This document shows, in pieces, positions 19,286-64,000 of a DNA stretch of 64,000 nt. Numbering within the stretch: position 1 is the stretch's first letter; every line of letters starts with the position of its first letter. The position numbers and the translations under genes are program-made. This DNA is from Thermoplasmatota archaeon. Its GTDB lineage: Archaea; Thermoplasmatota; SW-10-69-26; JACQPN01; JAJPHT01. Location of the stretch: the NCBI GenBank assembly GCA_035540375.1, contig DATLGO010000048.1:27772-91771 (forward strand), written 5' to 3'. Below the pieces are notes generated by a model. The model was not told where the DNA came from. It saw only the letters and a program-made list of their open reading frames with translations, and did not search any database.

Positions 19286-19657
19286 TTGCGGCCGCCTCGT
19301 CGCTGGGCTTTTCTGGCCGTCCGCCTTCCCGCCTGCGTGAAGCGCGTCCTTGCCTACGTTCCCGACCTGCTCTTCCGATCGCGCGTGCGCGGCACGGCCT
19401 CGGCCGCGGGCGTCGAGGTCGTGTTCGCGTCGAACGGGCCGGACCTCGCCGCGAAGGCGGCCTCGGGCGGCTTCGACCTCGCGCTCGTGGACCTCCACGC
19501 GCCCGGCGCCCTCGCGCATCTGCCGCGCGGCGTGCGCGTCGTCGGCTTCCACAGCCACGTGGACGTCGCGACGCGACGCGCGGCCGAGGCTGCGGGCGCG
19601 GAAGCGTACACGAACTCCGCCTTCGTCGAGGCCCTGCCGAAGATCCTTCAGGCGTGA
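19286..19657 (+). CDS. stand-alone CheY-like receiver (REC) domain protein, atypical
   Basis: RVLAYVPDLL...GVEVVFASNGPDLAAKAASGGFDLALVDLHAPGALAHL...VRVVGFHSHVD...AGAEAYTNSAFVEALPKIL follows REC topology. The phospho-acceptor Asp context (LALVDL) is present, but the N-terminal acidic pair and the conserved Lys are degenerate. The likely start is GTG near 19340. Confidence 0.4.
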   Translation: MRPPRRWAFLAVRLPACVKRVLAYVPDLLFRSRVRGTASAAGVEVVFASNGPDLAAKAASGGFDLALVDLHAPGALAHLPRGVRVVGFHSHVDVATRRAAEAAGAEAYTNSAFVEALPKILQA

Positions 19658-19724
19658 GCGCGGAAACCCCGTTCGGGGGCCGTCAATCCTTTATGGGGCG
19701 GCGCGCTCAGGAGGAGCGGTCATC

Positions 19725-48447: not shown

Positions 48448-48641
48448 ACCCACCCGGCCACGGGAAGCCCGTTGCCGCCTGTCGCGGAGACGCGCCCCAG
48501 CTTCGGATCGGTCCATCCAATCGTGAGAAAAGCTCAGGAGGCCCGACGAATTTCCGGGAGCCACGGCCAGCCTAGCTCGGGTCAGTCAGGACCCCCTCTC
48601 CACAGTGCACCCTCTCCCGCCCCCGTGGAGGCAACGCCCGC

Positions 48642-49712: not shown

Positions 49713-50387
49713 CTACGCCGCGCGCCGCGTCTTCAAGGCGAGGTACCCGAGCGACGCGAGCGTCGTGAGGCCGACGAGGACGGCGGCCCCGTGGAGGCTG
49801 CGGGCCTCGACGCTCGCCCCGAGGACGGGGTGGAGGAGGCCGAAGATCGTCGGTCCCATGAGGACCGCGACGAGCACGATCGCGGCCGCGATCGCAAGAA
49901 GCCTCAGCTGACCCGCCCGGACCGCGGAAGCCGCGGCATCGAGGCGCGCGATCGTGCCGGGGGGCGCGGCCGCGGCGACGTGGAGGAACTTCGCGGCGAG
50001 GGTCGCGTTCTCGACGAAGACGACGAACCCGAGCCCGCCGGCGAGCGCGATCACCCATTCGAGGAGGGACGGAAACGCGGTCGCGACGGGGAGCGCGACG
50101 AGGATCGCGAGAAGGCCTCCCGCGGCCGTCTGGAGGTAGGCGAGGCGTTCGCCGCGACCCTCCGGGTCGTTCTCGACGTTGAAGCGCGAGGCCCGCACGA
50201 GCCCGTGCCGCGCGATCGCGGTGGCCGCGAGGCCCGCGGCGAGGGTGAGCGCCGGAATCTCGACGACGCCGAGGAACGGACGGTCGCCGAGGAGGGCGAG
50301 GCCGCCCGTCGCGAGGGCCGTCGTCGCGAGGCCCGCGGTCGCCATCGCGATGCTCGATCGGGCGCCGCGGCCGATGTCGCGCGTCAA
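49713..50387 (-). CDS. polytopic membrane protein, last gene of the MoxR operon
   Basis: 224 aa with at least five hydrophobic helices. The start overlaps the DUF58 stop by 4 nt (ATGA). Confidence 0.5.
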   Translation of the reverse strand: MTRDIGRGARSSIAMATAGLATTALATGGLALLGDRPFLGVVEIPALTLAAGLAATAIARHGLVRASRFNVENDPEGRGERLAYLQTAAGGLLAILVALPVATAFPSLLEWVIALAGGLGFVVFVENATLAAKFLHVAAAAPPGTIARLDAAASAVRAGQLRLLAIAAAIVLVAVLMGPTIFGLLHPVLGASVEARSLHGAAVLVGLTTLASLGYLALKTRRAA

Positions 50388-51640
50388 AGCAGCGCCTCCC
50401 GGGCGAAGGTGACGGTGATCGGCTCGGCGGTGTCCCAGTCGACGACCACGGCGCCGTAGGACTTCATCTGGGCGATGGCCGTCTCGCGCTCGAGCATCGC
50501 GGTCTCGTACTCGGCCGTGCCGGGCGCGATGCCCGCCTTCTCGAGGAAGGCGCCCGCGCGCGGGGTGACCACGAGGACGCGCATCTCGTAGGCGCGCAGG
50601 GCGCGAACGGCCTCGCTCGCGGTGCCGTCGTCGAGGAGGTTCGAGATGAGGATGATGGGGCTTCGCGGCTTCAGCATCGGGAGGATCTGTCCCACGGCCT
50701 CGAGGGCCTTCATCGCGCCCTTGCCGTCGGCGTCCGCGAGGGCCTCCGAGAGCGGGATGATGGGCTTCTCGGTGCCGGTGAGGCGGACCTCGCGGATCGC
50801 GTCCTCGTAGAAGATGAGCCGCATCTTGTCCCGGCGCTTGAGGAGGAAGCCCGCGAGCGAGACCGCGGCGCGCGATCCGTACACGATGGCGTTGTCGCGC
50901 ACGGTGCCGAGGCGCGCGATCTCGCGGTTGTCGAAGAGGATCGTGACGCGGGCCTGCGTCTCGCGCTCCGTCTGGTTGACGATGAAGTTCTTGCTGCGCG
51001 CGCTCGCCTTCCAGTTGATCGATCGGTAAGGGTCGCCCGTCATGTATTCGCGCAACGCGAAGAACGACGAGCCGTAGCCGGGTTGGCCGACGATGTAGTC
51101 GCCCGCGACGACGAGCGGGAACTTGCTCTTCGTGAGCGCGTCCCGCAGGTCGAATTGGCGCGGGTAGATCGTGAGGAACGTCACGCGGTCCACGTCGTTG
51201 TCCTCGTGGAAGAGCCCGAACGCGTCCTGCACGCGGAGCCGCACCGGCCCGAGCGAGAACTTCCCCTTGATGGGCGCGCGGAGCACGTAGTCCATCTCAA
51301 GCGGCTCCGCCGAGAGCGCGGTGAGGACGTAGTTCGAGCCGCCCGCGATCTCGAGACCGGGCGGGAGGGTGTCGCGGATCTCCGCGAACACCCTTCCGCG
51401 AAGGCCCTTGGCCTCGACGCGGAGCCGCGTCTTGACCTCGGCGCCCTCGTGGCCGACCTGGCTCGAGGTCTCGCGCGTGGCGCGGATGTCGACGGACTTC
51501 ACCGTGAAGGCTGCGGCGGCGAGGAGGGCGAGGCCCGCGAGGCCCGCCGATCCGACGACCGGCGCGTCGAACACGAGGCCGACCGAGACGAGCAGTCCCG
51601 ATCCGGCCGCGGTGAGCGCGCCCTTCAGGGTGAGCTTCAT
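50384..51640 (-). CDS. DUF58-family protein (MoxR partner), two N-terminal TM helices
   Basis: GDYIVGQPGYGSSFFALREYMTGDPYRSINWKASARS is the hallmark DUF58 motif. Confidence 0.85.
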   Translation of the reverse strand: MKLTLKGALTAAGSGLLVSVGLVFDAPVVGSAGLAGLALLAAAAFTVKSVDIRATRETSSQVGHEGAEVKTRLRVEAKGLRGRVFAEIRDTLPPGLEIAGGSNYVLTALSAEPLEMDYVLRAPIKGKFSLGPVRLRVQDAFGLFHEDNDVDRVTFLTIYPRQFDLRDALTKSKFPLVVAGDYIVGQPGYGSSFFALREYMTGDPYRSINWKASARSKNFIVNQTERETQARVTILFDNREIARLGTVRDNAIVYGSRAAVSLAGFLLKRRDKMRLIFYEDAIREVRLTGTEKPIIPLSEALADADGKGAMKALEAVGQILPMLKPRSPIILISNLLDDGTASEAVRALRAYEMRVLVVTPRAGAFLEKAGIAPGTAEYETAMLERETAIAQMKSYGAVVVDWDTAEPITVTFAREALL

Positions 51641-51647
51641 CGACGTC

Positions 51648-52667
51648 TCACACGGTGGGAACCGGCGCCTCGCGGACGATCTCGTTCACGACGTCGTGGT
51701 TCTTGACGCCCCGGATCTTCGATTCGGGCCGCAGGATGATGCGGTGGGCGAGGATGTGGGGCGCGACGAACTTGACATCGTCGGGGACGACGAAGTCGCG
51801 GCCCGACATGGCGGCCTTGCTGCGGCAGGCCTTGAGGAGCGCCTGCGAGCCGCGCGGCGAGGAGCCGACGTAGATGTCGGGGTGGCCGCGCGTGCGGACG
51901 ACGAGGTCGGCGATGTAGTCGATCATCTCGTCCGAGATGTAGATCGTCTCGATCGTCTGCTGCATCGCGATGACCTGCTGGGGGTTCGTGACGGCGGACA
52001 CGTCGACGTCGTCCTTCGCCCGACGGATGCGGCGGCGCAGGATCTCGGCCTCGTCGGCCTTCGCGGGGTACCCGACGCTGAGCTTCATGAGGAAGCGGTC
52101 CATCTGGGCTTCGGGCAGCGGGTAGGTACCTTCCTGCTCGACCGGGTTCTGCGTCGCCATGACGAGGTACGGCTTGTCGAGCTTGAGCGTCGCGCCTTCG
52201 ACCGTGACCTGGCGCTCCTGCATGGCCTCGAGGAGAGCCGATTGGGTCTTGGGCGGGGCGCGGTTGATCTCGTCCGCGAGCAGGATGTTGGTGAAGACCG
52301 GGCCCGGGCGGAAGTTGAACTCGCTCGACTGCTGGTTGTAGACGTACGTGCCCGTGATGTCGCCGGGAAGCACGTCGGGCGTGAACTGGATGCGGCGGAA
52401 GTCGCAGCCGGCCGCGCGCGCGAACGTGTTCGCCATGAGCGTCTTCGCCATGCCGGGAAAGTCCTCGAAGAGGATGTTGCCCGACGAGAGGATGTTGATC
52501 GTGACGAGCTCCAGCACCTCGCGCTTGCCGACGATGACCTTCGCCACCTCGTCGATGAGGCGCTTCGTCGTGTCGGCGAGCCGGACGACGTTCGGGTTCG
52601 GGGGGCGCTGCGGGCGCGCCTGGGCGAACGTCTTCGCTGCCTGGGGTTTCGTGGCCATGATTATCAC
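51648..52667 (-). CDS. MoxR-family AAA+ ATPase
   Basis: ILFEDFPGMAKTLMANTFARA (Walker A variant, AAA_3), LLADEINRAPPKTQSALLEAMQERQVT (Walker B and sensor), 339 aa. Confidence 0.93.
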   Translation of the reverse strand: MIIMATKPQAAKTFAQARPQRPPNPNVVRLADTTKRLIDEVAKVIVGKREVLELVTINILSSGNILFEDFPGMAKTLMANTFARAAGCDFRRIQFTPDVLPGDITGTYVYNQQSSEFNFRPGPVFTNILLADEINRAPPKTQSALLEAMQERQVTVEGATLKLDKPYLVMATQNPVEQEGTYPLPEAQMDRFLMKLSVGYPAKADEAEILRRRIRRAKDDVDVSAVTNPQQVIAMQQTIETIYISDEMIDYIADLVVRTRGHPDIYVGSSPRGSQALLKACRSKAAMSGRDFVVPDDVKFVAPHILAHRIILRPESKIRGVKNHDVVNEIVREAPVPTV

Positions 52668-53890
52668 CTGCTGCCTTTGCCGTAGTTCCGGATCCTTGTC
52701 AGGAGATCCTTGAGGGTATCGTCATCGCTTGCGCCGTTTTCGCCGCGCACGACGCGACGCAACCGGTCGTCGGTCGCGAGGACCGCGAGCGTTTCGGGGG
52801 CGGGCGACTCCTCGCGCACGCCGTGGACGGCCCGCACGCGCTCGCGCGCGAGGCGCGTAATGCGCTCGATCGGGCTCGCCATGGGGGAGGTCCGGACGCG
52901 GGCGAGGCCGCTCCGGTGGTGCGTGAGCCGCTCCTCGGGTTTGACGAGGGCGAGGAGCACCGCGATCGCGAGGCCGAGGGAACCGAGGAAGATCCACTGC
53001 CAGAACGGGTCCTTCGTCGGCACGACGAGCGACGCGAGGCCCGCCGCGGCGAGCCGGGCCTGGGGCGCGGGCGCGTGACGCGATTCGTCGAAGAGGATGG
53101 TTCCGGCGTTCGACCCGCGGGCGAGCGCGTCGGGGAGGGCGAGGGCAAACTTGCGGTTGTCGCTCCCTGCGGCGTCGAGCATCTCGTTCGTGAAGAGGGC
53201 GGGGTCCGCGATGAACATGACGGTGCCGCGGCCGTGCGCGACGACGACCATCTGGGGGAAGGGACCCTTCGTGTCCGTGTCGTCCTTGCGGCGGTTCCCG
53301 TCGTTGTCGAGGTACGAGTCCGGCGAGCTCGTCGCGACGATCCGGGCCGAGGGGTTCGCGCCGGAAAGAAGGCTCGGGCTCACGGTGAGGGCCGTGGGCT
53401 CGTTGAGAAGGAGGTCGAAGGTCAGGTCCTCGCCCTTGCTCGTCGTGAGGAGCGCGCGGGCGCGGGCGAGCGAGACGTTCTTCTGGAAGTTGGAGTCGAG
53501 GAGCGGCACCTTGTCGAAGGTGACGCCGAACTTGACGGCGAGCGTGTTCGCGAAGCCGAAGTCGTCCGCGACCACGAGGACGCCGCCGCGCGTCACGAAG
53601 TCGTCGAACGCCTCGATCTCGGAGGCCGAGTACGGCCGGCTCACGCCGACCGCGAACACGATGTGGGCCGCGGGATCGGAGACGCCGCGCAGCACGAGCG
53701 GCGTCGAGGCGATGGTGTCCGTGTTGTACCCGAGGCCCCCCGCGAGGCTCGCGCGGTACGCGCCGAGATCCGCGCGGCCCGAGCTGTAGGATCCGAGCTC
53801 CGGGGGCGGGGAATAGAGGATCGCGACGACGGCGCCCCCGACAATGAGGGCGGCAAGGAGGACGGCCGCGAGGCCGAGCGCGCGCTTCAC
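52664..53890 (-). CDS. DUF4350-like protein (N-terminal and C-terminal TM helices flanking a large extracytoplasmic domain)
   Basis: The GTG start (VKRALGLAAVLLAALIVGG) overlaps the stop of the giant upstream gene (GTGA). C-terminal TM FWQWIFLGSLGLAIAVLLALV. The stop overlaps the MoxR start (GTGA). The 5' 2.4 kb of the track ORF 52664..56311 overlaps the giant gene out of frame and is rejected. Confidence 0.6.
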   Translation of the reverse strand: MKRALGLAAVLLAALIVGGAVVAILYSPPPELGSYSSGRADLGAYRASLAGGLGYNTDTIASTPLVLRGVSDPAAHIVFAVGVSRPYSASEIEAFDDFVTRGGVLVVADDFGFANTLAVKFGVTFDKVPLLDSNFQKNVSLARARALLTTSKGEDLTFDLLLNEPTALTVSPSLLSGANPSARIVATSSPDSYLDNDGNRRKDDTDTKGPFPQMVVVAHGRGTVMFIADPALFTNEMLDAAGSDNRKFALALPDALARGSNAGTILFDESRHAPAPQARLAAAGLASLVVPTKDPFWQWIFLGSLGLAIAVLLALVKPEERLTHHRSGLARVRTSPMASPIERITRLARERVRAVHGVREESPAPETLAVLATDDRLRRVVRGENGASDDDTLKDLLTRIRNYGKGSR

Positions 53891-56800
53891 GCGCCCGCCT
53901 CCTTCGCGCCGCCCTTCGTGCGCCGGATGCGCGCGAGGTCGGCGTTGAGCGCGGCGAGCGCGCTCAGGGCGCGGTCGCGCTCGGCGGGCCCGACGCCGTG
54001 GGCGGAGTACCGCGCCTCCTCGAAGAGCGAGACGAGCGCGTCGAGCGGCGCCGCGCGCACCGGGAGAGCCGCCTTGACGGCGGCGCCGAACTCCTGCGCC
54101 GTGACGTCCGGCGTCGTCGTGTACCCGAATTTCACGAGGTAGTCGCGCAGGCGCCGGTAGGCCATGAGAATGGTGGCCGAGTACTCGTCGCCCGCGACGA
54201 GCGCGGCCTGCGTGTCGAGGAGGATGCGCTCGGCCTCGGTGACGCGGCTCTTCCTGTACCAGGCGACGAGGAGGCTCACGATGGCCGCGACCGCGAGAGC
54301 GCCGATGAGCGCGAGGACCCACGAGTTGCCGGCGCCGCCGAAGGCGCCCGTGGAGATCTGGATGCGGGTCGCCTCGTTCGTGGGCAGCAGGTCGTCGGTC
54401 CCGCCGAAGCGCACGTCGAGGTCCGAGGCGCCCGCTCCGGTGACCTTCCCCGGGAAGGAGGCGTGGCCGGTCGCGTTCGTCTTCAGCGTGAACGGGTAGT
54501 ACGAGCCGCTGAAGTGGACGCGGAGCACGGCGTTCGGGACGCCGAGCCCCTCGTCGTCGAGGAGCTGGACGGTGCCCGTGAAGCTGTCGCCCACCGCGAG
54601 CTTGCGGGGGACCACGACCTCGAGCCGGGTCATGCTGATGACCTCGACGAGCGCGATCGCCGAGGCGGGCGTGTGGCTCTGGTCGCCCGCGTAACGGACC
54701 TCGATCGGGACCCGGGCGCGCTCGAAGTCGGCCGGGATGAGGGCCGCGACGTGGAAGCTCCCGTTCGGGGCCGTGCTCGCGCGCGCGAGGAAGGAGCCGT
54801 TGAAGATGAGCTCCACGGAGGCGCCGGGGACGCCGAGGCCGTTCTCCTGCTTGAGGCGGCCGTCGAACTCGAAGACCTGGCCGCGCACGGCGCGCGGGGG
54901 CGGGTGGATCTCGAGCACGGTGCGCGAGAGCAGGCGCAGCGACCCGGTCGCCCCCGAGGGCGCGTAGAGCGTGGAGCCCTCGTAGCGCGCCTCGATCGGG
55001 TAGACCTTCGCGGCGACCCCGGAGGTGTCGAAGCCGGCCTCGGCCTCGCCGCGGAAGTCGGTCGGAGTGACCGTCACGGGCGATCCGAGGAAGGTGACGC
55101 CGACGATCTCGCCGCCGATGGGCCGGCCGGCGTCGTCGTGGAGCGTGAAGTTGTACACGACCTCGCCGATCGCGGCGGTGAGGTGGGGCATGCGAATCGA
55201 GGTCGCGCTCAGGACGCGCACCGTCGAGACGAGCTCCGGCGCCCCGCGCAGGAGGCCGTCCGCGCTCCCGTCGTAGCGGGCGCGCGCGAGGACGGGGCCG
55301 AGGCTCGCGTTCGCGGGGAGCGTGAGGGGCGCGCGGAATCCTCCGGTCGCGTTCGTCACGAAGACGCCGAGATGGCGCTCGCCGAGCGTCACGTTCACGC
55401 TTTCGCCGCGGACGGGCCGCTCGTAGGCGTCGACGACGACCCCGACGAGCGCCTGCGGAACGCCGCGCACGAGGGCCTTCGTCTCGAGGCTCACGCGCGT
55501 CGCGGACGTCGCCGGAACGCGGATCGAGGTCGAGGCGGGCCCGTAGAAGTCGGATCCCGCGAATCCGAGCGCGAACGTCACGCTCCCGACCTTGGGATAG
55601 ACGTTCCTCGGGATGGTGAGCGAGAAGGTTCCCGTCGCGTTGTCCACGCGCGCCTGGGTCGCGTAACCCTCCGTCGAGATGCGGATGACGAGCGCGTCGC
55701 GCGAGGTGGGGTCGCGCGCGGGGCCGCCGCCCACGTCCCGGAGGGTCCCCTGGATGACCGCGTCCTTCGCGATGTCGAGCGCCGTGACGCGGATGAGGTC
55801 GGCCCCGAGGGGCTGGAGGATCTGCGCCTCGAGGACGGGCCGGGCCCGGATGGTGACGAAGCTGAGCTTCTGCGAGGAGGCCTGGTAGAGGTCGGATCCC
55901 TCGAAGACGAGGGAAACGGGCTGGTTGCCAGGACTCGAGTCCTCGGGGATGAGGATCTTGAAGGACGCGACACCCTGCGCGTTTGTAACCGCCGTGTGGA
56001 GCGCTCCGAGGAAATGGAGACCGACGGTCTCGTTGCCGACGACCGCCCCCCGGAAGTTCCTGAGGGTCGCCTCGGCGACGAGATCGCCTCCCGCAACCGC
56101 GATGAGACGATCGTTCAGCACGCGGCCGGAGATCTTCGTGGGGAACGCGATCGCGACGCGGGCCTTCCCCGTCGAGGCGCCGTAGAGCTCCGATGGCGTG
56201 GTCTCGAGCGGGAGGTCGAAGTAGCCCGGCTCCTGGGCGGCGCCGGTCGGGAAGCTGATGTTGAACCGCCCCTCCGCGTCCGTGGTCGCGCTCTTGCGGA
56301 CGCCGTTCCACGTCATGAGCACCGGCCTCCGCGGCGCGGGGTCACCCGACCCGTCGAGGAGGCGCGCGGTGCCCCCGATCTCGCCGTTCGGCGTCGTGCG
56401 GAGCGTGGGTCCGGCGTCGAACGTGGTCGGCGTGCGCAGGCGGAGCGTCTGTGTTGCCACCACGGGCGTCTCGAACGTGCCGCGGATGCCCCGGGCCCGG
56501 TAGACGGTGGAGCCCGCGCCGTCGACGACGTCGGCGGCGGTCCACTCCGCGTGGGCGCCGATGCCGTAGCTCCAGAGAAGGACGCGGTAGCTCGTGATCG
56601 CTGGATCGAGCGCGACGGAGGCCGTGTCGAGGGTCCAGCTCACCGTGGATCCCGGAGCGTGGACCTTGCCGAAGAGCACCACCGGGCCGCAGCTCGAGGG
56701 AATGGTGACGGATTGCGCGCGCACGAGCGAAAGCGTGAGCGAGAAGCGGCCGGCGGCGTCCGTGAACGCCACGCCCGCGACGCGGGACGGGTCGCTGCGG

Positions 56801-59800
56801 GCCCTCAGGTTGTCCTTCGAGGCGTCGTTCCAGGCGAGGTTCGCGAGGATGGGGACGCAGGCGCGGTTGACCCAGTTGCGCGTCGAGGCCGCCGGGGCGA
56901 GCGTCCCGTCGACCGCAAGCGAGCCCCCCTTGAGCAGGATGTCGTCCTGACCGGAGTGGTGCGTCACGACGAGGTCCTGGATCACGACGTCCGCAAGCGC
57001 TTCCCAGATCGGGCACGTGTCGCCGGGAAGTCGGGTCGAGGCCACGCTGAGGCGGCCTTCGCGCATCACCCAGGCGTTCCGGAAGGCGGGGTCCGCGGGG
57101 TCCGCCTCGCCCGTGTTCATCTGGTCGTAGAACGGGTGCGGATCCTCGCCGACGAAGTCGTTCAGCCCGTCCTTGTCGTAGTCGAAGTTGTTGCCGAGGA
57201 TCTTGCCCGTGATCGGGTCGATGAAGCCGTCCTTGAAGGGCGGTCCCGCCTTGCACGAGCGCGTCGCGATGTTCGTGTCCGTGCGGTTGCCCGCGGCGCC
57301 GAACCACCAGGTGCCGGTCCACGACGGCGGGCGGCCGATGTCGTACCGCTGGCCTTCGGACAGGTCGCCGAAGCGCGAGACCGTGCGGGTGTCCTGGAGC
57401 GGGTCGTACCCGTAGAGCTGCTCCCACCCGTCGGGGATCCCGTCGTCGTCCGAATCCTCGTCCGTGGGGGAGGTTCCGACGGCGCACGTTCCCCCGTCGG
57501 GGCATCGCTCGCCGTAGAAGATGTATCCGCCCGGAATGCGCGTGTGCACGATGCCCGCGGCGATGAGCGCTTCGACGTGCTCCGCAAGGTCCGGCTTCGA
57601 GAGCGTCGCTTCGCACGTCGCGGGGAGGGCGCCGCCCGCAAGCTGCGCCTGCCAGTTCGGGCCGTCGAGGAGGCCGTCGCCGTCGGTGTCGAAGGCGACG
57701 ACGCTCGTCGGGGGATTGAGCGCGAGCTCGTCGGCGGCGCTGAGGCCGTCGCAGTCCGCGTCGGAGGCGCCGAGGTCGTCGAGCGGGTTCAGCGGATTGG
57801 ATCCCGCGAGCTTCCCTTCCTCGGTGACCTCCTTGCCGTCGCCGAGGCCGCCGAAGTCGCTGTCGGGATTGAGGGGATCGGTCGGGCCCGGCATGCCGGG
57901 CTCGAAGGAGACCTTCCACTCGTTGACGTTCGAAAGCCCGTCGCCGTCGCAGTCCGATTTCCCGCCGAGGGGGTTGCGCGGCTCGAAGAGGCTCACGCAG
58001 GAGACGTAGGCGGGGCTCGCCGAGGCGAGCCGGCGCGTGCGCGCCTCCCACCAGTCCGGCATCCCGTCGCCGTCGGTGTCCGGCACGAGCGGGTCCGTGC
58101 GGTTCTCGTACATCTCGCGCCAGGTCCAGCGGAACGGGCCCTGGATGATGTAGACCGTGAATTCCTCGGCGCGGCCCTGGGCCTTCACGCGGTGGTACCC
58201 GTTCGTCGGGGCGAGGAGGGTCTCCGAGGGCGCAAGCGTCGCGGGCGTGCCCTCGGGGACGCCGAGGGTGCGCACGTACGTGGTCTCGAACCCGGTGGCG
58301 TTCACGTCGCCGGGCTTGAGCGGGTCCATGCAGCCGCACGGCGACGCGACGCCGGGGGCGTGCGAGCCGACGCGGGAGAAGTAGTATTCCCACCCGTCGG
58401 GAACGCCGTCGCCGTCCGAGTCCGCGCGGTGGGGATCGGTCTTGAGCGCGTACTCGTCGAGGTTCGTGAACGCGAACTGGAACGGGAACAGGGTGCCGAC
58501 GCGGTGGTCCACGCCGTCGCCGTCGAGGTCGCGCGTCGTGTCGGAGAGCCCGTCCTTGAGGCACGACCCGAGGCTGTCGACCCGCGTCGGATCGAGGTCC
58601 CACGCGAAGCACGCGTGGACGTACCAGGCGTGGCGGATCTCCCAGCCGTCGTCGAGCGAGTCCCCGTCCGTGTCGAAGAGGGCGGGATCGGAGGCGGGGA
58701 AGGGGTACGCGTCGAGCGCCCCCGGGGCCGCGAGGCGGCGCTCGGGCTTGAGCTCGGCCCCGTCGTTCACGCCGTCGCCGTCGGCATCCGCGTTCACGAC
58801 GTTCGGGGCGTCCTGCCAGCGGCCGCAGCCTTCGCCGAGGCGTCCCTGGGGCAGGAGCGCCTCGCGGGCCTGCTGGAGCGACCACGTCTCGCCCTTGCAG
58901 CGGCGGTGCTGGTCGATGATGCGGTTCAGCTCCTCGGGCGTCGCCTGCTGGGAGCGGGTCGTCCAGTACTCGACCTCGGCGCCGTCGAGGATCCCGTCGC
59001 GATCCGTGTCGGACTCGACGGGGCTGAGCGGCGGGGACACGGCGAAGGCGACCTCGTCGAGATCGTCGATGCCGTCGAGGTCCGTGTCGGGCGTGAGGGG
59101 ATCGAGCGCGCACGGGACGCCCGCCTTGGCGGCCGTGTCGTAGCAGAAGTCGACGCGGCGGCCCGCGATGACCGAGAAACCCTGACGCTTCTCGAAGTCG
59201 GTGAAACCCGAGTTGGCGCTGTCCGCGCGGGCGGGATTGCTCCACACGTGCGTCGTGCGACCGTCGACCGTGACCGACCAACCGAGGACGACCTCCTCGA
59301 AGTCGTTGAGGCCGTCGCCGTCCGTGTCGCGCCGCCGCGGATCGGCGCCCGAGAGCGCCTCCTCGAGGTTCGTGAGGCCGTCGCCGTCGGGGTCCGTGAG
59401 CGGCCCCACGACGAAGGCGGGAAGCGAGGCGCGCGAGAGCCACGCGGGGAGCGAGATGTGGGTGAGGAGCGCCGCGCGCACGCCGCCGCCGTCCGCCGCC
59501 GAGAGCGGGTCGAGCCCGTGCGCGACCTCCCACGCGTCCGACATGCCGTCGCCGTCGGAGTCCGCCCGCGTCGGGGAAAGCCCGCGCGCGAAGAGGGGCG
59601 CGAGCTCGTCGCCCGAGAGGTTCGCGTAATTGAAGCGGGCCGCGGTCCAGCGGAACTTCTCGAGCACCGTCATGCCGGTCCCGTCGAGGCTCCGGTAGGC
59701 GAGGCCCGGGTCGAGGGCGTCGAGCTTCCAGTGGAGGAGCCAGCCGTCCGCGATGCCCGCGCCGCTCGTCGAGTATCGCGTCGCGTTCGTGCGCGTCTCC

Positions 59801-60465
59801 GTCATCTCCTTGAGATCCTCGAGACCGTCGCCGTCGGAGTCGAGGCGCGAAGGATCGAGGCCGAGCGCGAAGTTCTCGAGGTTCGTGAGACCCTTGCCCG
59901 AGCAGTCCCGCGTCGCATCGGGAACGAGCGGGTCCGGGCACGCGGTCCCGTTGTCGGGGCCGCGCTTCGCGTAACGGGCCTCCCAGGCGTCCGGGAGCCC
60001 GTCGCGGTCCGTGTCCGCGTGGTTCGGGTCCGTTCCGTGCCGCTCCTCGTCGCGGTTCGAGAGGCCGTCGCGATCGCAGTCGCCGTCCGCGTCGGGAACC
60101 ACGGGGTCGGGACAGTACGTTCCGGAGACGAAGTCGTAGCTTCGCTTCAGCGCCTCCCACGCGTCGGGAAGGCCGTCGCCGTCCGTGTCCGCGGAGTCGC
60201 GCGCCGTGCCGTAGGAGAACGTCTCGTCGAGGTCGGAGAGCCCGTCGCCGTCCGTGTCGATGAAGGCGAGATTGCCGTCCGGCGTCGCGGTCGCGAACTC
60301 GATCTGTCCCGTGCCCGCGGTCTGCGTGAGGCTCGGAAGGACGGCGGCGCCGACGAGGAGGTTCGCGAGGAGGACGAGCGCGAGGACCGCGGGAGCCACC
60401 TTCGCCTTCTGCGCCCAGGCCCACCGCGCCATGCGGGTCGCGGCTTCGCTTCCCGGAAGCGTCAC
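53887..60465 (-). CDS. giant (2192 aa) surface protein with a TSP3-like repeat region, a beta-sandwich domain array, a TM helix and a DUF4129-like cytoplasmic tail
   Basis: N-terminal signal/anchor (VAPAVLALVLLANLLVGAAVL). About 19 D-x-D-x-D-G-x-x-D-x-x-E repeats (for example DTDGDGLSDLDE, DSDGDGMSDAWE, DTDGDGMPDWWE). Repeated roughly 100-aa beta-sandwich modules. TM helix NSWVLALIGALAVAAIVSLLVAWY. C-terminal tail with ...TPDVTAQEF...LFEEARYSAHG... resembling DUF4129. Confidence 0.8.
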   Translation of the reverse strand: MTLPGSEAATRMARWAWAQKAKVAPAVLALVLLANLLVGAAVLPSLTQTAGTGQIEFATATPDGNLAFIDTDGDGLSDLDETFSYGTARDSADTDGDGLPDAWEALKRSYDFVSGTYCPDPVVPDADGDCDRDGLSNRDEERHGTDPNHADTDRDGLPDAWEARYAKRGPDNGTACPDPLVPDATRDCSGKGLTNLENFALGLDPSRLDSDGDGLEDLKEMTETRTNATRYSTSGAGIADGWLLHWKLDALDPGLAYRSLDGTGMTVLEKFRWTAARFNYANLSGDELAPLFARGLSPTRADSDGDGMSDAWEVAHGLDPLSAADGGGVRAALLTHISLPAWLSRASLPAFVVGPLTDPDGDGLTNLEEALSGADPRRRDTDGDGLNDFEEVVLGWSVTVDGRTTHVWSNPARADSANSGFTDFEKRQGFSVIAGRRVDFCYDTAAKAGVPCALDPLTPDTDLDGIDDLDEVAFAVSPPLSPVESDTDRDGILDGAEVEYWTTRSQQATPEELNRIIDQHRRCKGETWSLQQAREALLPQGRLGEGCGRWQDAPNVVNADADGDGVNDGAELKPERRLAAPGALDAYPFPASDPALFDTDGDSLDDGWEIRHAWYVHACFAWDLDPTRVDSLGSCLKDGLSDTTRDLDGDGVDHRVGTLFPFQFAFTNLDEYALKTDPHRADSDGDGVPDGWEYYFSRVGSHAPGVASPCGCMDPLKPGDVNATGFETTYVRTLGVPEGTPATLAPSETLLAPTNGYHRVKAQGRAEEFTVYIIQGPFRWTWREMYENRTDPLVPDTDGDGMPDWWEARTRRLASASPAYVSCVSLFEPRNPLGGKSDCDGDGLSNVNEWKVSFEPGMPGPTDPLNPDSDFGGLGDGKEVTEEGKLAGSNPLNPLDDLGASDADCDGLSAADELALNPPTSVVAFDTDGDGLLDGPNWQAQLAGGALPATCEATLSKPDLAEHVEALIAAGIVHTRIPGGYIFYGERCPDGGTCAVGTSPTDEDSDDDGIPDGWEQLYGYDPLQDTRTVSRFGDLSEGQRYDIGRPPSWTGTWWFGAAGNRTDTNIATRSCKAGPPFKDGFIDPITGKILGNNFDYDKDGLNDFVGEDPHPFYDQMNTGEADPADPAFRNAWVMREGRLSVASTRLPGDTCPIWEALADVVIQDLVVTHHSGQDDILLKGGSLAVDGTLAPAASTRNWVNRACVPILANLAWNDASKDNLRARSDPSRVAGVAFTDAAGRFSLTLSLVRAQSVTIPSSCGPVVLFGKVHAPGSTVSWTLDTASVALDPAITSYRVLLWSYGIGAHAEWTAADVVDGAGSTVYRARGIRGTFETPVVATQTLRLRTPTTFDAGPTLRTTPNGEIGGTARLLDGSGDPAPRRPVLMTWNGVRKSATTDAEGRFNISFPTGAAQEPGYFDLPLETTPSELYGASTGKARVAIAFPTKISGRVLNDRLIAVAGGDLVAEATLRNFRGAVVGNETVGLHFLGALHTAVTNAQGVASFKILIPEDSSPGNQPVSLVFEGSDLYQASSQKLSFVTIRARPVLEAQILQPLGADLIRVTALDIAKDAVIQGTLRDVGGGPARDPTSRDALVIRISTEGYATQARVDNATGTFSLTIPRNVYPKVGSVTFALGFAGSDFYGPASTSIRVPATSATRVSLETKALVRGVPQALVGVVVDAYERPVRGESVNVTLGERHLGVFVTNATGGFRAPLTLPANASLGPVLARARYDGSADGLLRGAPELVSTVRVLSATSIRMPHLTAAIGEVVYNFTLHDDAGRPIGGEIVGVTFLGSPVTVTPTDFRGEAEAGFDTSGVAAKVYPIEARYEGSTLYAPSGATGSLRLLSRTVLEIHPPPRAVRGQVFEFDGRLKQENGLGVPGASVELIFNGSFLARASTAPNGSFHVAALIPADFERARVPIEVRYAGDQSHTPASAIALVEVISMTRLEVVVPRKLAVGDSFTGTVQLLDDEGLGVPNAVLRVHFSGSYYPFTLKTNATGHASFPGKVTGAGASDLDVRFGGTDDLLPTNEATRIQISTGAFGGAGNSWVLALIGALAVAAIVSLLVAWYRKSRVTEAERILLDTQAALVAGDEYSATILMAYRRLRDYLVKFGYTTTPDVTAQEFGAAVKAALPVRAAPLDALVSLFEEARYSAHGVGPAERDRALSALAALNADLARIRRTKGGAKEAGA

Positions 60466-63400
60466 GGGGCGACCCTCCGCCTAAGGAGCAGGGCCGCGCC
60501 GAGCGCCGCGACGACGATCGCGAAGGCCGGAACGGGCGTGAAGGCGCCGCTTGATCGGGCCGAAAGGTCGTATTTGAGGGCGTTGTTCGCGCGGTTCTCC
60601 TCGTGGAAGCGGTTCGAGGGATCGATCGCGATCTCGAACGTCGAGGCCCGGATGACGTTCCACGGGAGCTGGATCTTGCGGGCCTCGTTTGGGGCGAGGC
60701 TCTCGAGCGTCGCGTTCTTCACGACCTGCCCGTCCGCGACGAGCGCGACCTCGACGCGGCTCGCGGGCACGGTGCCGTTGTTGAGGACGGTGATCTCGAA
60801 GAGGACGGTCTCGCCGACCGCGAAGCGGTTGGCCTTCGCGTCGACCTTCACGACGCTGAGGTCGAGGCGCTCGATCACGAGGTCGATCGGCGTCACGCGC
60901 TCGCGCTCCTGGTTGATGACGCCGCGGACCTCGAGCCGCGCGCTGTCGCTTGTGGCGTTGCGCGGCGCGGTGACCTCGAAGGCCACGCGCGTGGATTGGC
61001 CGGGCTCGAGCCTGACGATGCGGTCATCGGGCCGCTCGAACCGCATCGTCCAACCCGGGGGCGGGACGGTCTCGAGGACGATCTCCTCGGGACCGTTGCC
61101 GGTGTTCGTGACCGCGAGCGCGACGCGCGTCTTTCCGCCGGGACGGACGAACCCGTCGGACTCCACGATGGCCTCGTAGTCGAAGAATCGCTTCACGCGG
61201 GCCGCGACGACCTTCTCGAACAGGTGGCGCGAGCCTTCCGCGTCCGAGAGGAGGAAGCCGACGCCGATCGCGAATTCGCCCGGATCCTCGTTGGGCTTCG
61301 CGGCGACGACGACCGAGACGGCGCGCGCCTCGCCCGGCAGCAGGTCGAAGGTGCCCGGCGGATTGACCTCTGCGAAGGACCAGCCGGGCGGGAGCGCGGA
61401 GGGCACGAGAGAGACCCGCATCGCGCCGTTCGCGCGGCTTGCGATCTCGAAATCGAAGCTCACCTTGGCGCCCGGGTCGAGACTGCGGGGGAGCGGGGTC
61501 GGAACGACGAGTGTGAAGTTGTTGACGACGATGGCGGTCACGCGCGTCGCGTTCTCCTTGAGGCCGCCGTCGGCTTCCTCGGTGAGCGCGGTCGCCTTCA
61601 CCTGGAAGGGAAGCACCTGACCGACGCGCGCGCTCGGTCCCGGCAGCACCGAGAGGTTCACGACCCGGCTGTCGCCCTGGCCGCGGAGCGTCACGCGCGA
61701 AGGCTCGATCGCGTACGTCCAGTCGGGGGCCGCGGGGGAGACGACGCCGAGGACGACCTCCGTGTCGCTTCCCAGGTTCGTGACCTTGATCGGGAGGTGC
61801 GTCGTCGTTCCGGGCGTGACGCGGAAGGTCGAGTTCTCGGCGTCGACCCGAAGGTCCGTGCGGATGTTGATGCTCACCGTGGCCGTGACCTGGTCCTGGG
61901 TCGAGGCGTCCGCGACCGAGGCGCCCTGGACGACGAACTCCCATTGGAGGGGGAGGTCGTTGCGCGGCGCGCGCACGCGGAGCTTGACCTCCGTTTCGCC
62001 CTTCTCGGGGAGCGCGACGCGACCCTTGAGACCCGAGGAATCCGCGATGCGGCGGCCCGCCGCGTCGACGATCTCGGCCGTGAACGGGAAGCCGCCGGGA
62101 CCGCCGGGGCTCACGGAGAGCGTGACGTTGTCCGCGCCCGTGCCCGTGTTCTTCACGAGGACCGTGAACTCGTGCGTGCCCGCGGACTGGAGGCTCGCGA
62201 ACGAGGTCTTGGCCTGCGCGACGCGGCCGACGAACGACATCTGGAAGTCGTAACGCGTCTGCACGCTCACCGTGACGCGCGCGGTATCCTGGATGCGCGG
62301 GTTGGCTCCGCTCGTGAGCGTGAGGTTGAAGGTGATCTGCTCGCCGGTCTTCACCGAGGGGTCGATGCGGATCGCCACGGTGACGTCGCGCGTTCCGCCC
62401 GTCGGGATCGAGCGCTCGATCGCGGTCGAGACCGTGACGCGCCATTTCTGGGTCGAGCCCTGGAAGTCCTGGTCGATCTCGAAGTCGTCCGTGATGCTCG
62501 TGTTGCCGAGGCCGCGGCCGAGGTTCACCGCGGTGAGCGTGAACTTGGCCGTGTCGCCCGGCTTGAACGTCCCCGAAAGCGTTCGCTCCTTCCACGCGAC
62601 GAGGTTTCCGTAGAAGTTGACGATGCCGACCTCGATCTTCACGGGCGCGAGCGTGCCCTGGTAGAACGTCCCGTAGAGCTGGCTCCCCGGCGTGTACACG
62701 TTCACGAGCACGGGCTTCGACGCTTCCACGCGGAAGAAGGCGTCCTTCGCGCCCGACCGGAAGATGGGCTGGTTGTTCTGGCGCCACACGTAGTCGTTCT
62801 GGTTGAGCGTCCGCGTGAGGCGCGTCGTGAACTGGGTCGTGCCGTTCGCGAGGAGGGTTTCCTCCTTGACGGTCACGACGGTGTTGTTGTGGACGGGAAA
62901 GATGTTCATCCATCCCGGGAGGCTGTTCGACCCGGTGGAGGGGATGCGGACCTCGAAGACGCGGCCGCCGTCGAGACCGCCCGCGGCCATGTATCCTCGT
63001 CGGCCCGAGGCGACCGAGATGGGTCCTCCTTCGACCGCGTAGAAGGTCCAGGGCTCGGCGCGGTCGTTGTGCGTGTTCTGGCTCTGGACGTTCGAGCGGA
63101 CGGCGTGCGGCTTGATCGTGAGGGTTCCGTCGCAGTACGGGATGCGGCCGAGCTGCGGGGGCGTCGTGAGCTGGTCGCAGGTCGGCGAGACCATGCGCGT
63201 TCCGATGAACTCGGTGGGCGCGTAGGCTGTCGTCACGAAGGACCGCGCGAAGGCGCCGTAGACCTGGGTTCCCGCCGGTGCGCCGTGCTTCGACGGCATC
63301 TGGTAGAGATAGTTGTCGTTGGCCCCGGTCGTGAACACCATGATGCGGCCTTCGGCTTCGATCCGCATCGGCGATCCGTCCGACCCGACGAGGGTCGCGC

Positions 63401-64000
63401 TCGGGATGTTCACGGGCGTTTCCTTCGGAACGCGGTTCGACCACCTCGGGCCGCTCTGCGATACTCGAGCGTCGAAGATGCGCACCTCCGTGGGGCCGTC
63501 GAGCGCGACGATGTACATGGGGGTCGGCGACGTGTCGCTCTGGGGCGCGGACGCGGGAAGGAAGTGGAAGCGGCGACCGACGATGCCCCCGTCGACGGCG
63601 GGGACGACCGTCGCGGTGGGATAGAACGTCCCGACCGTCTCGGGCGGGTTGGGCCGGTAGAGGTAGTCCTGCCTCAGCGAGACCGTGACGGGCTTCGACG
63701 CGACGACCTTGAAGTAGAAATCCTGGTCGCCGTTCACGACGGTGACGGTGAGGGGCGTCGCCTGGAAATGGTCGCCCTCGATCACGATCCCGCCGTCGCG
63801 CATCTTCGTCTTCTCGTTGCCGGGGATGCAGGGCGGATTGTTCCGCGCCTCGCCGCAAAGCGGGATCGGATCGGGCTCGAAGTTCTCGAGCCGGTAGCGA
63901 TAGAGCCTGACGGTCGTGTTCGGGAAGTGCGGCATGACGTCGAGCACGGCCGGCGCGCCGGCTTCCGCGCCGTTCGCGGGAGCCCACCCGTAGAAGGTGG
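60462..64000 (-). CDS. giant surface protein with a CARDB/DUF11-type domain array and PGF-CTERM-like C-terminal anchor, 5'-truncated by the window edge
   Basis: Repeated CARDB-like units (FTVLVKNTGTGADNVTLSV; VKVDAKANRFAVGETVLFEITVLNNGTVPASRVEVALVADGQV). C-terminus ...GAFTPVPAFAIVVAALGAALLLRRRVAP. The stop overlaps the next start (ATGA). The reading frame stays open upstream to the window edge (no in-frame stop 63948-64000). Confidence 0.75.
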   Translation of the reverse strand, partial: TFYGWAPANGAEAGAPAVLDVMPHFPNTTVRLYRYRLENFEPDPIPLCGEARNNPPCIPGNEKTKMRDGGIVIEGDHFQATPLTVTVVNGDQDFYFKVVASKPVTVSLRQDYLYRPNPPETVGTFYPTATVVPAVDGGIVGRRFHFLPASAPQSDTSPTPMYIVALDGPTEVRIFDARVSQSGPRWSNRVPKETPVNIPSATLVGSDGSPMRIEAEGRIMVFTTGANDNYLYQMPSKHGAPAGTQVYGAFARSFVTTAYAPTEFIGTRMVSPTCDQLTTPPQLGRIPYCDGTLTIKPHAVRSNVQSQNTHNDRAEPWTFYAVEGGPISVASGRRGYMAAGGLDGGRVFEVRIPSTGSNSLPGWMNIFPVHNNTVVTVKEETLLANGTTQFTTRLTRTLNQNDYVWRQNNQPIFRSGAKDAFFRVEASKPVLVNVYTPGSQLYGTFYQGTLAPVKIEVGIVNFYGNLVAWKERTLSGTFKPGDTAKFTLTAVNLGRGLGNTSITDDFEIDQDFQGSTQKWRVTVSTAIERSIPTGGTRDVTVAIRIDPSVKTGEQITFNLTLTSGANPRIQDTARVTVSVQTRYDFQMSFVGRVAQAKTSFASLQSAGTHEFTVLVKNTGTGADNVTLSVSPGGPGGFPFTAEIVDAAGRRIADSSGLKGRVALPEKGETEVKLRVRAPRNDLPLQWEFVVQGASVADASTQDQVTATVSINIRTDLRVDAENSTFRVTPGTTTHLPIKVTNLGSDTEVVLGVVSPAAPDWTYAIEPSRVTLRGQGDSRVVNLSVLPGPSARVGQVLPFQVKATALTEEADGGLKENATRVTAIVVNNFTLVVPTPLPRSLDPGAKVSFDFEIASRANGAMRVSLVPSALPPGWSFAEVNPPGTFDLLPGEARAVSVVVAAKPNEDPGEFAIGVGFLLSDAEGSRHLFEKVVAARVKRFFDYEAIVESDGFVRPGGKTRVALAVTNTGNGPEEIVLETVPPPGWTMRFERPDDRIVRLEPGQSTRVAFEVTAPRNATSDSARLEVRGVINQERERVTPIDLVIERLDLSVVKVDAKANRFAVGETVLFEITVLNNGTVPASRVEVALVADGQVVKNATLESLAPNEARKIQLPWNVIRASTFEIAIDPSNRFHEENRANNALKYDLSARSSGAFTPVPAFAIVVAALGAALLLRRRVAP

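Follow-up and report, generated by a model that had tools for sequence, protein, structure and literature searches.

A putative Thermoplasmatota surface protein with a region of bacterial TSP3-type Ca-loop repeats, encoded in a conserved CARDB/DUF4350/MoxR/DUF58 operon

This study concerns a gene for a large repeat-containing protein in a 64,000-nucleotide stretch of a Thermoplasmatota genome (GenBank assembly GCA_035540375.1, contig DATLGO010000048.1, positions 27,772 to 91,771 of the forward strand), which is called the window below. The gene lies on the minus strand and encodes a protein of 2192 amino acids (aa). With a probability of about 0.72, we regard its product as a bitopic surface protein of Thermoplasmatota whose head consists of repeats of the bacterial thrombospondin type 3 family (TSP3_bac) and which serves as a Ca2+-dependent structural or adhesive element of the cell-envelope system specified by its operon. 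The N-terminal region is most likely a Ca2+-stiffened extracellular module, because selection appears to act on the putative ligand positions, the repeats keep a common loop-helix register in the predicted structure, and Cys pairs co-vary among orthologues.

A regular-expression count in the true reading frame gave 19 D-x-D-x-D-G motifs and one DTDGDS sequence (a D-x-D-x-D-S variant), and 12 of the 19 fitted the full D-x-D-x-D-G-x-x-D-x-x-[ED] pattern. A hidden Markov model (HMM) built from the copies themselves recovered 20 copies with strong scores and a weak one at aa 860-881, and four decayed copies (aa 187, 232, 259, and 415) were seen against the family consensus. The unit consensus was D1-x-D3-x-D5-G6-Φ7-x-D9-x-x-E12, often followed by G-x-D-P. 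When the N-terminal 1155 aa were shuffled 20,000 times with the composition preserved, the mean number of motifs was 0.24 and the maximum was 4, compared with 19 observed; such an array would hardly arise by chance and does not represent low-complexity sequence. The motif array proper extends over aa 70-1110 (window 57136..60258). The gene and the region are as follows.

53887..60465, minus: whole gene, 2192 aa, GTG start (open reading frame list, third-position GC, and exact database match)
57136..60282, minus: Ca-loop (TSP3_bac-type) region, aa 62-1110, with 20 strong, 1 weak, and 4 decayed units and non-repeat inserts between them

A preliminary description of this DNA, made from the letters, had reported about 19 regularly spaced repeats at 57900-60260, in roughly the N-terminal 800 residues. 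The number agrees with the strict motifs, and the variant, weak, and decayed copies come in addition. The extent was underestimated: the region is about 1050 residues long, and the array reaches 57136, about 760 nucleotides lower, so that 16 of the 20 strong copies fall inside the interval and four outside it. The spacing was not regular but ranged from 22 to 114 aa, with pairs of loops 22-26 aa apart at a few places only (70/93, 129/151, 358/380, 460/486, and 902/926). Every example string quoted in that description is present, although two of them, DSDDDGIPDGWE (57421-57456) and DYDKDGLNDF (57148-57183), lie beyond its interval. The W-E said to follow many motifs was found after seven copies (aa 93, 151, 302, 598, 682, 796, and 1004). 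Each strong repeat core listed below was identified by the regular-expression motif, the self-built HMM, and the secondary structure in an AlphaFold model; other evidence is given in the line, and invariance refers to 35 orthologues.

60223..60258, minus: repeat core aa 70-81, DTDGDGLSDLDE; D70, D72, D74, D78, and E81 invariant; loop and helix in the model
60154..60189, minus: repeat core aa 93-104, DTDGDGLPDAWE
60046..60081, minus: repeat core aa 129-140, DCDRDGLSNRDE, preceded by the Cys118-Cys130 loop
59980..60015, minus: repeat core aa 151-162, DTDRDGLPDAWE
59872..59907, minus: decayed unit aa 187-198, DCSGKGLTNLEN, preceded by the Cys176-Cys188 loop; in the second copy of a 58-aa duplication; model helix from position 9
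59806..59841, minus: repeat core aa 209-220, DSDGDGLEDLKE
59737..59772, minus: decayed unit aa 232-243, STSGAGIADGWL; S232, G237, D240, and G241 conserved in the family; loop and helix in the model
59656..59691, minus: decayed unit aa 259-270, SLDGTGMTVLEK; family consensus here DPDxDGLTxLEE (alignment); model helix from aa 267
59527..59562, minus: repeat core aa 302-313, DSDGDGMSDAWE; best Pfam TSP3_bac stretch at aa 302-323
59359..59394, minus: repeat core aa 358-369, DPDGDGLTNLEE
59293..59328, minus: repeat core aa 380-391, DTDGDGLNDFEE; D380, D382, D384, and E391 invariant
59188..59223, minus: decayed unit aa 415-426, DSANSGFTDFEK; family consensus here DSDGDGLxDxEE (alignment and model)
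59053..59088, minus: repeat core aa 460-471, DTDLDGIDDLDE
58975..59010, minus: repeat core aa 486-497, DTDRDGILDGAE
58753..58788, minus: repeat core aa 560-571, DADGDGVNDGAE
58639..58674, minus: repeat core aa 598-609, DTDGDSLDDGWE, with S at position 6; D598, D600, L604, W608, and E609 invariant
58495..58530, minus: repeat core aa 646-657, DLDGDGVDHRVG, lacking E12; a strand instead of a helix comes next
58387..58422, minus: repeat core aa 682-693, DSDGDGVPDGWE
58045..58080, minus: repeat core aa 796-807, DTDGDGMPDWWE
57919..57954, minus: repeat core aa 838-849, DCDGDGLSNVNE
57829..57864, minus: weak copy aa 868-879, DSDFGGLGDGKE; 5.3 bits with the self-built HMM; D868, D870, and D876 invariant; loop and helix in the model
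57727..57762, minus: repeat core aa 902-913, DADCDGLSAADE, beyond the interval first described
57655..57690, minus: repeat core aa 926-937, DTDGDGLLDGPN, without E at position 12 and followed by a β-hairpin; beyond the interval first described
57421..57456, minus: repeat core aa 1004-1015, DSDDDGIPDGWE, beyond the interval first described
57148..57183, minus: repeat core aa 1095-1106, DYDKDGLNDFVG, without E at position 12; beyond the interval first described; kept in 35 of 36 orthologues

The open reading frame (ORF) at 53887..60465 on the minus strand had a GC content of 0.94 at third codon positions and is therefore the true reading frame. Its 2192-aa product is identical, residue for residue, to NCBI HVL48010.1 ('MAG TPA: DUF4129 domain-containing protein [Candidatus Thermoplasmatota archaeon]'). 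The same protein is encoded on contigs from two ENA metagenome assemblies and was also called in JGI data; a protein record with precomputed Pfam matches is thus already deposited. Because the GC content of the window is about 70%, several long ORFs overlap across frames between 54 and 61 kb. Spurious long ORFs over the real gene, at 53998-61179 (plus strand, 2393 aa) and 56342-60424 (minus strand, 1360 aa), are rich in Arg, Gly, and Pro; such long overlapping ORFs, including the plus-strand one, are artefacts of 70% GC DNA and could mislead a frame-naive reading. The archaeal origin assumed in the preliminary description was borne out by the NCBI name and by window genes for aEF-1α, the EMG1/NEP1 methyltransferase, PAC2, and an ATP-dependent DNA ligase; an IF-2B family protein and an AMP-phosphorylase-like enzyme are further archaeal-type products. 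The protein was rightly called large, but its own operon holds a larger gene.

A homology search recovered at least 70 clusters of full-length relatives of 1870-2300 aa with 26-39% identity and 86-99% coverage. They share the Pfam composition of TSP3_bac plus Big/MG/CarboxypepD_reg plus DUF4129, and the named ones come from metagenome-assembled genomes (MAGs) of Thermoplasmatota or 'Euryarchaeota'. These relatives carry 7-24 D-x-D-x-D-G motifs, all within the first 1000-1200 residues or so. In alignments of 36, 66, and 35 sequences with 26-43% identity, every query motif lines up with an orthologous motif in the same columns. Among the 35 orthologues (26-39% identity), the predicted ligand positions (1, 3, 5, 9, and 12) were 81% identical to the query, compared with 30% at the other 952 positions of the region, and the invariant columns were almost all motif residues, chiefly D or E. 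Loop position 7 was L, I, V, M, or F in 94% of the orthologue cells. These alignments point to strong purifying selection on the ligand positions.

An AlphaFold model of the N-terminal 1155 residues was built with the 35-sequence alignment and without metal. It had a mean predicted local distance difference test score (pLDDT) of 83.9 and a predicted template modeling score of 0.57, and consisted of 62% coil, 29% helix, and 9% strand. In 18 of the 21 copies and at all four decayed sites, an 8-residue loop was followed by a helix of 4-8 residues beginning at motif position 9. The copies lacking the helix (aa 646, 926, and 1095) are the three without Glu at position 12. The modeled repeat corresponds to one half of an EF-hand, namely the loop and the exiting helix, whose first turn carries Glu12. 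The N-terminal fold as a whole had no counterpart in the PDB, and fold similarity to solved type 3 repeat regions was not observed.

The repeats were assigned to the Pfam family TSP3_bac (PF18884, 'Bacterial TSP3 repeat'), which scored 66.4 bits over the whole protein against a gathering cutoff of 25 and matched seven stretches. When ten segments were scanned separately against Pfam at E ≤ 10, aa 55-170 and aa 285-400 gave 69.7 and 58.9 bits, respectively. The 22-residue TSP3_bac unit was evident in an alignment of 21 copies, and aa 302-323 covers profile positions 1-22. On the other hand, PF02412 (TSP_3), the profile named for a HMMER check in the preliminary description, reached 7.1-8.8 bits (E 1.7-5.8) in three of the ten segments against a cutoff of 25, and was absent from the whole-protein Pfam scan at E ≤ 1. 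The name 'TSP type 3-like Ca-binding repeats' can therefore be kept if it is taken to mean the bacterial family. Dockerin (PF00404) was matched neither in the ten segments nor in the whole protein at E ≤ 1. EF-hand models (PF00036 and PF13405) gave 9.5-11.8 bits against cutoffs of 25-25.4, and Excalibur gave up to 14 bits in the segment scans, all below threshold. Binary_toxB (PF03495) reached 20.6 bits at best against 25, over profile positions 2-25 of a 78-residue domain, which is a likeness at the motif level only. A better score for dockerin or EF-hand-like families and a merely compositional signal had been named beforehand as findings that would speak against the identification; no dockerin match was obtained, the EF-hand scores were 9-12 bits, and the signal was not compositional. 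In NCBIfam, CglD (NF033765) scored 99.2 bits against 400 and MtsD (NF047639) 62.5 against 800, as partial matches confined to the repeat region. The protein is therefore not an orthologue of CglD or MtsD, the scores being far under the equivalog cutoffs. Hundreds of bacterial proteins with TSP3_bac arrays were recovered in the homology search.

The 21-copy repeat profile was also searched against all PDB sequences at E ≤ 10. The best match was the OmpA-family TSP3-repeat protein 5WTL (E 0.002), over profile positions 9-18, that is, the loop core. The type 3/OmpA identity given in the preliminary description holds as far as the bacterial PF18884 and 5WTL are concerned and fails for the eukaryotic PF02412. 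The lanthanide-binding EF-hand protein lanmodulin (6MI5, E 0.0038) came second, with the related EF-hand protein 8FNS at E 0.0067. The Ca site of C2-II toxin, ANRDTDRDGIPDEWEI, was matched over the whole unit including WE (E 0.013), and further matches were to Vip1/Vip4 and Bap. Matches to the full unit with 'WE' represent the Ca-binding motif of binary-toxin B components, not thrombospondin; no thrombospondin, COMP, or dockerin chain was among the matches. The N-terminal 1155 aa searched against PDB sequences gave nothing significant (best, a fibrillin EGF domain at E 0.11 and Bap at E 0.16).

The repeat region contains 20 Cys residues, and the recurring Cys pairs pointed out in the preliminary description exist as a CPDPxVPDAxxDC loop found twice, CPDPVVPDADGDC at aa 118-130 and CPDPLVPDATRDC at aa 176-188, but they vary between lineages and do not define the repeat. 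Both loops fall within a tandem duplication.

59842..60189, minus: 58-aa tandem duplication, aa 93-150 and aa 151-208 (BLASTP, 53% identity, no gaps, E 8e-18)

Tandem Repeats Finder detected no DNA-level tandem repeat in the gene beyond trivial short GC-rich ones, and there has therefore been no recent expansion at the DNA level. Cys118 and Cys130 were present together or absent together in all 35 sequences, with the pair in 15 of them; Cys905 and Cys951 nearly always co-varied, with the pair in 10 of 35; and the Cys176/Cys188 pair occurred in this protein only. The recurring pairs (118/130, 905/951, 441/452, and 619/635) were each found in a minority of orthologues, most repeat units have no Cys, and most Cys residues are lineage-specific. 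The Cys conserved in every repeat that would mark the thrombospondin type 3 family was not found in the alignment of 35 orthologues. Because the pairs co-vary, an oxidizing, extracellular setting is suggested; such pairs would fit optional disulfide staples of an extracellular protein rather than a defining feature of the repeat.

Downstream of the repeats, the β-sandwich modules expected from the preliminary description were confirmed by Pfam matches above the cutoffs: MG4 (PF17789, 41.6 bits against 24.7), Big_1 (PF02369, 44.7 against 34.9), and CarboxypepD_reg (PF13620, 34.0 against 32.3). Eight modules were seen in the model of the C-terminal 1043 residues (pLDDT 85.9), and Foldseek matched them to macroglobulin (MG) arrays of bacterial α2-macroglobulin (E 3e-23), complement C5, and titin. 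DUF4129 (PF13559) scored 39 bits against a gathering cutoff of 24.8 over profile positions 1-68 of 69. The parts of the protein flanking the repeats are listed below.

60325..60408, minus: N-terminal hydrophobic segment, aa ~20-47, preceded by R/K residues (hydropathy scan); signal peptide or signal anchor
54355..56979, minus: eight β-sandwich (macroglobulin/Big/CarboxypepD_reg-like) modules, aa ~1163-2037 (Pfam Big_1, MG4, Big_3_5, and CarboxypepD_reg; model; Foldseek)
54256..54324, minus: C-terminal transmembrane helix, aa ~2048-2070, followed by RKSR (hydropathy scan; long model helix at aa 2053-2091)
53956..54162, minus: DUF4129 domain, aa 2102-2170, predicted cytoplasmic helical bundle (Pfam PF13559; four model helices)

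In the N-terminal model, a helix at aa 7-41 is followed by a disordered linker at aa 42-63. We infer that the repeat region and the stalk are outside the cell and DUF4129 is in the cytoplasm, because a positively charged N-terminus precedes a hydrophobic segment and RKSR follows the C-terminal transmembrane helix.

Other explanations of the repeats were weighed against these data. They might be dockerin-like modules whose paired Ca loops dock cohesin-like domains and assemble the CARDB giants of the operon into a cellulosome-like surface complex. Several loops are indeed paired 22-26 aa apart, and the helix after each loop recalls the F-hands of dockerins. Giant surface proteins are encoded in the operon, one of them being fused to the repeat protein in some genomes, and giant Omnitrophota proteins combine dockerin repeats with bacterial TSP3 repeats (West-Roberts et al., bioRxiv 10.1101/2023.11.21.568195). 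However, neither the segments nor the whole protein matched Pfam dockerin, and no cohesin was recorded in the neighboring genes, where the domains are CARDB, NPCBM_assoc, Ig_VWA7, FixG_C, Laminin_G_3, DUF4350, AAA_3, and DUF58. In addition, the conserved hydrophobic residue of the repeats is at loop position 7, whereas EF-hand and dockerin loops carry it at position 8. A docking role of this kind is quite improbable. Nor do the repeats behave as true eukaryotic/OmpA thrombospondin type 3 repeats (PF02412), in which Cys-stapled motifs of 13 and 23 residues surround a binuclear Ca2+ core. The core D-x-D-x-D-G-Φ-x-D is shared, 5WTL is the best PDB sequence match, and the two CPDPxVPDAxxDC loops resemble the type 3 Cys spacing, C-P-x-x-x-N...D-x-C. 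Each type 3 repeat reportedly has conserved Cys residues that form disulfides; here, most units lack Cys pairs and the pairs vary between lineages. The 7-9 bits of PF02412 against a cutoff of 25, the restriction of the 5WTL match to profile positions 9-18 without the helix/E12 part, and the absence of a TSP_C lectin-like domain in the Pfam scan of the protein likewise make membership in this family very improbable.

The repeats could also be metal-sequestering or metal-sensing EF-hands, either lanmodulin-like binders of lanthanides or other cations or a Ca2+ sensor signaling through the transmembrane helix to DUF4129 and MoxR. The matches of the repeat profile to 6MI5 and 8FNS, a loop with the full EF-hand ligand set (positions 1, 3, 5, 7, 9, and 12), the link between an extracellular region and a cytoplasmic domain, and the location of the gene two upstream of an AAA+ ATPase gene are in line with this idea. 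In contrast, the EF-hand Pfam models scored 9-12 bits against a cutoff of 25, and in the model, tabulated from the loop onward, the 8-residue loop was coil in all copies with only the exiting helix seen. Pro at loop position 2, found in every aligned lanmodulin loop, occurs in one of the 21 copies (aa 358, DPDGDG), and twenty positionally conserved sites over 1000 residues suit a structural role better than a switch. A sensor or metal store is therefore a very unlikely reading. Finally, the 70% GC window with its long overlapping ORFs in several frames raises the question of whether the motifs are a compositional or frame artefact, that is, a low-complexity stretch rich in Asp and Gly, read in the wrong frame or from non-coding DNA. 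This reading was refuted and has virtually no chance of being correct: the third-position GC of 0.94 marks the frame, the exact protein was called in ENA, NCBI, and JGI data, shuffling gave 0.24 motifs against 19, full-length orthologues conserve the positions, and both structure models are confident.

Several points weigh against the identification of a Ca2+-dependent head of TSP3_bac type. In five segments other than aa 55-170 and aa 285-400, TSP3_bac scored 7.5-20.2 bits, below the cutoff when taken alone, and it was unlisted in three; the Pfam per-domain threshold was passed by seven stretches only. Ca2+ binding is deduced from sequence and a metal-free model, and the adhesive role is proposed by analogy. 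Furthermore, the N-terminal hydrophobic segment may remain uncleaved and act as an anchor, so that both ends of the protein would be tethered.

The gene belongs to a minus-strand series in the order CARDB giant (>3824 aa, extending beyond the window), 1417-aa CARDB/NPCBM_assoc protein, TSP3/DUF4129 gene, DUF4350, MoxR AAA+, DUF58, and a 224-aa protein. Its immediate members are as follows.

60462..64000, minus: upstream operon gene for the 1417-aa CARDB/NPCBM_assoc surface protein, 5' end beyond the window; stop overlaps the TSP3 gene start (GTGA)
52664..53890, minus: DUF4350 (arCOG01314-type) membrane protein, 408 aa; start overlaps the TSP3 gene stop (GTGA)
51648..52658, minus: MoxR-type AAA+ ATPase, 336 aa
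50384..51640, minus: DUF58 protein, 418 aa
49713..50387, minus: 224-aa protein without a family match, the last conserved gene of the cluster

GTGA start/stop overlaps were found at 60462-60465 and 53887-53890, each with a GGAGG-like motif about 9-10 nucleotides upstream. Translational coupling and the use of Shine-Dalgarno sequences in this archaeon are therefore suggested. The conserved cluster exceeds 30 kb (window 49713-64000, minus strand; locus L001, 1-20753; L003, L004, and L005), and most junctions overlap by a few bases. The protein sizes in these loci are 3800-5300 aa for the CARDB giant, about 1360-1420 aa for the CARDB/NPCBM_assoc protein, and about 224-242 aa for the last protein. 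The operon order is shared by the window and loci L001-L008, L011, L020, L026, and L030, those from L006 onward being the loci, among the listed matches of a genome-collection scan, that align with the query as far as its C-terminal end or hold the cluster; MoxR is missing at L005, L007, L011, L020, and L030. That scan used one peptide pattern, D[TS]DxD[GA]LLDG, and its listed matches are not a census and do not include the window's own genome. The adjacency of DUF4350 (arCOG01314), MoxR, and DUF58 by which Makarova et al. 2015 recognized their system is present here. NCBIfam gave no match for the DUF4350, DUF58, and 224-aa proteins or for a 303-aa protein encoded nearby.

In the protein clusters P0047, P0056, and P0073, the middle CARDB protein and the TSP3/MG/DUF4129 protein form one ORF of 3274-3298 aa. 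The fused ORF was found in two independent assemblies, at 10001-19825 of both L086 (GCA_964464425.1) and L087 (Logan SRR32548279), in each case immediately downstream of the gene for the CARDB giant. The next genes are DUF4350 and DUF58 in L087; in L086, an unannotated ORF of 126 aa comes next, at the end of the contig. The N-terminal ~1270 aa of the fused product are 24% identical to the CARDB protein of the window (E 2e-15), and the remainder is 32% identical to the TSP3/MG/DUF4129 giant (E 6e-103). By an argument of the Rosetta-stone type, this fusion in some genomes suggests that the CARDB protein and the TSP3 protein act together.

Taken together, the flagged DNA would encode the N-terminal, membrane-distal ~1050 residues of the protein, with 20-21 functional and about four decayed TSP3_bac units among small non-repeat inserts. 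The predicted Ca2+ coordination of each functional unit is EF-hand-like: positions 1, 3, 5, and 9 would contribute their side chains and position 7 its backbone carbonyl, and Glu12, located in the first turn of the helix, would bind in bidentate fashion. Bound outside the cell, about 20 Ca2+ ions would impose a fold and stiffness on the chain, about 60% of which is otherwise irregular, and a few lineage-specific disulfides may add to this stiffening. The resulting large acidic head would sit on a stalk of eight macroglobulin/Ig-like β-sandwich modules, anchored by a single transmembrane helix and ending in the helical DUF4129 domain in the cytoplasm. The protein would thus be one subunit of a conserved, translationally coupled CARDB/DUF4350/MoxR/DUF58 operon system. 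The data themselves establish the motifs and their statistics, the family membership, the conservation by position, the loop-helix geometry as predicted, the topology signals, the synteny, and the gene fusion; Ca2+ binding, the extracellular location, the structural or adhesive role, and a coupling to MoxR/DUF58 are what we infer from them. As a tentative extension, on balance unlikely, the TSP3/MG/DUF4129 protein may be a transmembrane coupling subunit whose Ca2+-stiffened head organizes the CARDB giants while MoxR/DUF58 act on its DUF4129 tail, so that the surface layer is assembled or remodeled in an ATP-driven, Ca2+-dependent manner.

Some further features of the operon and the window were recorded. 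The C-terminus of the upstream CARDB protein (window 60462-60560, minus strand) reads ...PVPAFAIVVAALGAALLLRRRVAP and resembles a C-terminal sorting or anchor signal; NCBIfam gave no match to a PGF-CTERM-type signal in this protein, only choice-of-anchor T below threshold. L006 (JAJPHT010000008.1, 'Proteobacteria bacterium isolate Centralia_MAG_189') carries the archaeal-type operon with tblastn values equal to those of L004 (ENA ERZ27279688), and this contig is probably mislabelled or mis-binned. L007 and L008 (CAZXUC01, 'uncultured Halobacteriales archaeon') are two paralogous full-length copies on different contigs of one MAG, the former followed by DUF4350 and DUF58 and the latter by MoxR and DUF58. 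The ORFs at 48576-49487 (plus strand, 303 aa) and 49713-50387 (minus strand, 224 aa) had coding-like third-position GC and no Pfam or NCBIfam match; the 224-aa ORF is kept after DUF58 in related loci, and in L001 and L003, the operon and the DNA ligase gene are separated by an unannotated gene. Elsewhere, one stop-to-stop ORF at 19341-21167 (plus strand) had matches to ThiS, ThiF, and rhodanese, all in one frame, and may represent either a fused ubiquitin-like modifier/E1-like protein or two adjacent same-frame genes. In the 1002-aa stop-to-stop ORF at 11667-14675 (plus strand), FAD-oxidoreductase (DAO/DAO_C) matches were confined to residues 485-983; its first ~480 residues, which overlap other candidate ORFs, are probably a non-coding extension. 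A tRNA scan detected no tRNA genes in the window.

Compared with known systems, the repeats are closest in their unit to bacterial TSP3 (PF18884; Myxococcus surface proteins of the CglD/MtsD type and giant bacterial adhesin-like proteins), which has the same 22 residues, D-x-D-x-D-G-Φ-x-D-x-x-E plus G-x-D-P. They are ordinary members of this catalogued Pfam family, which is widespread in bacteria, and add little by themselves; TSP3-type repeats were also found in MAGs of Poseidoniales, Asgard, and Nitrososphaerota among the genome-scan matches listed, and within Thermoplasmatota, widespread 'thrombospondin' genes of Poseidoniales have been read as adhesion genes (Rinke et al. 2019, PMC6461757). 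Unlike the bacterial proteins, the present one has no uniform tandem array but positionally fixed sites separated by unique inserts, and the archaeal family that it represents has an architecture (MG-like stalk, transmembrane helix, and DUF4129) and an operon of its own. The Ca2+ site in domain 1 of binary-toxin B components (anthrax protective antigen, C2-II, CDTb, iota-Ib, and Vip1/Vip4; PF03495) occurs once in a β-rich domain of the toxins, whereas about 21 copies are present here, below the PF03495 threshold and without pore-forming domains. With thrombospondin type 3 (thrombospondin/COMP and 5WTL), the protein shares the D-x-D-x-D-G-Φ-x-D core, a predicted extracellular setting, a chain with little regular structure that many Ca2+ ions presumably hold together, and occasional disulfide staples; it differs in having Glu in a helix at position 12, in place of Asp-x-Cys, and no C-terminal lectin-like domain. 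The likeness to the Bap B domain (PDB 7C7R) is weak (E 0.11-0.16), only a pair of loops being in common. What goes beyond the catalogue is, besides the place of the family in its operon and the fusion to CARDB, the scaffold itself, in which about 24 Ca-loop sites are fixed at about 30% family identity and metal sites, instead of regular secondary structure, apparently hold together a large domain without a solved structural counterpart.

The operon also has known relatives. The neighborhood of DUF4350 (arCOG01314), MoxR, and vWA with Ig-like surface proteins was predicted by Makarova, Galperin and Koonin (2015, PMC5898192) to encode a novel secretion or membrane-remodeling complex. Bifidobacteria have a bacterial counterpart, the fn3-MoxR-DUF58-transglutaminase 'PFNA' cluster (PMC8430577). 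In the predicted archaeal system, as here, DUF4350, MoxR, and DUF58 stand beside large Ig-like surface proteins, and in the window the TSP3 gene lies directly upstream of them. A literature search on DUF4129/DUF4350 and MoxR/DUF58 in archaea returned only the 2015 comparative-genomics prediction as bearing on the system. Among the partners in that description are Ig-like and S-layer-like proteins but no TSP3-repeat/DUF4129 giant, and the CARDB giants and the fusion are absent from the section and table consulted. If the proposed coupling subunit were real, it would make that predicted system concrete. The present family is the DUF4129-bearing member of a CARDB/DUF4350/MoxR/DUF58 cluster of more than 30 kb, and this uncharacterized archaeal operon is of more interest than the repeats; the natural fusion with CARDB offers a concrete hypothesis on the binding partners of the protein.

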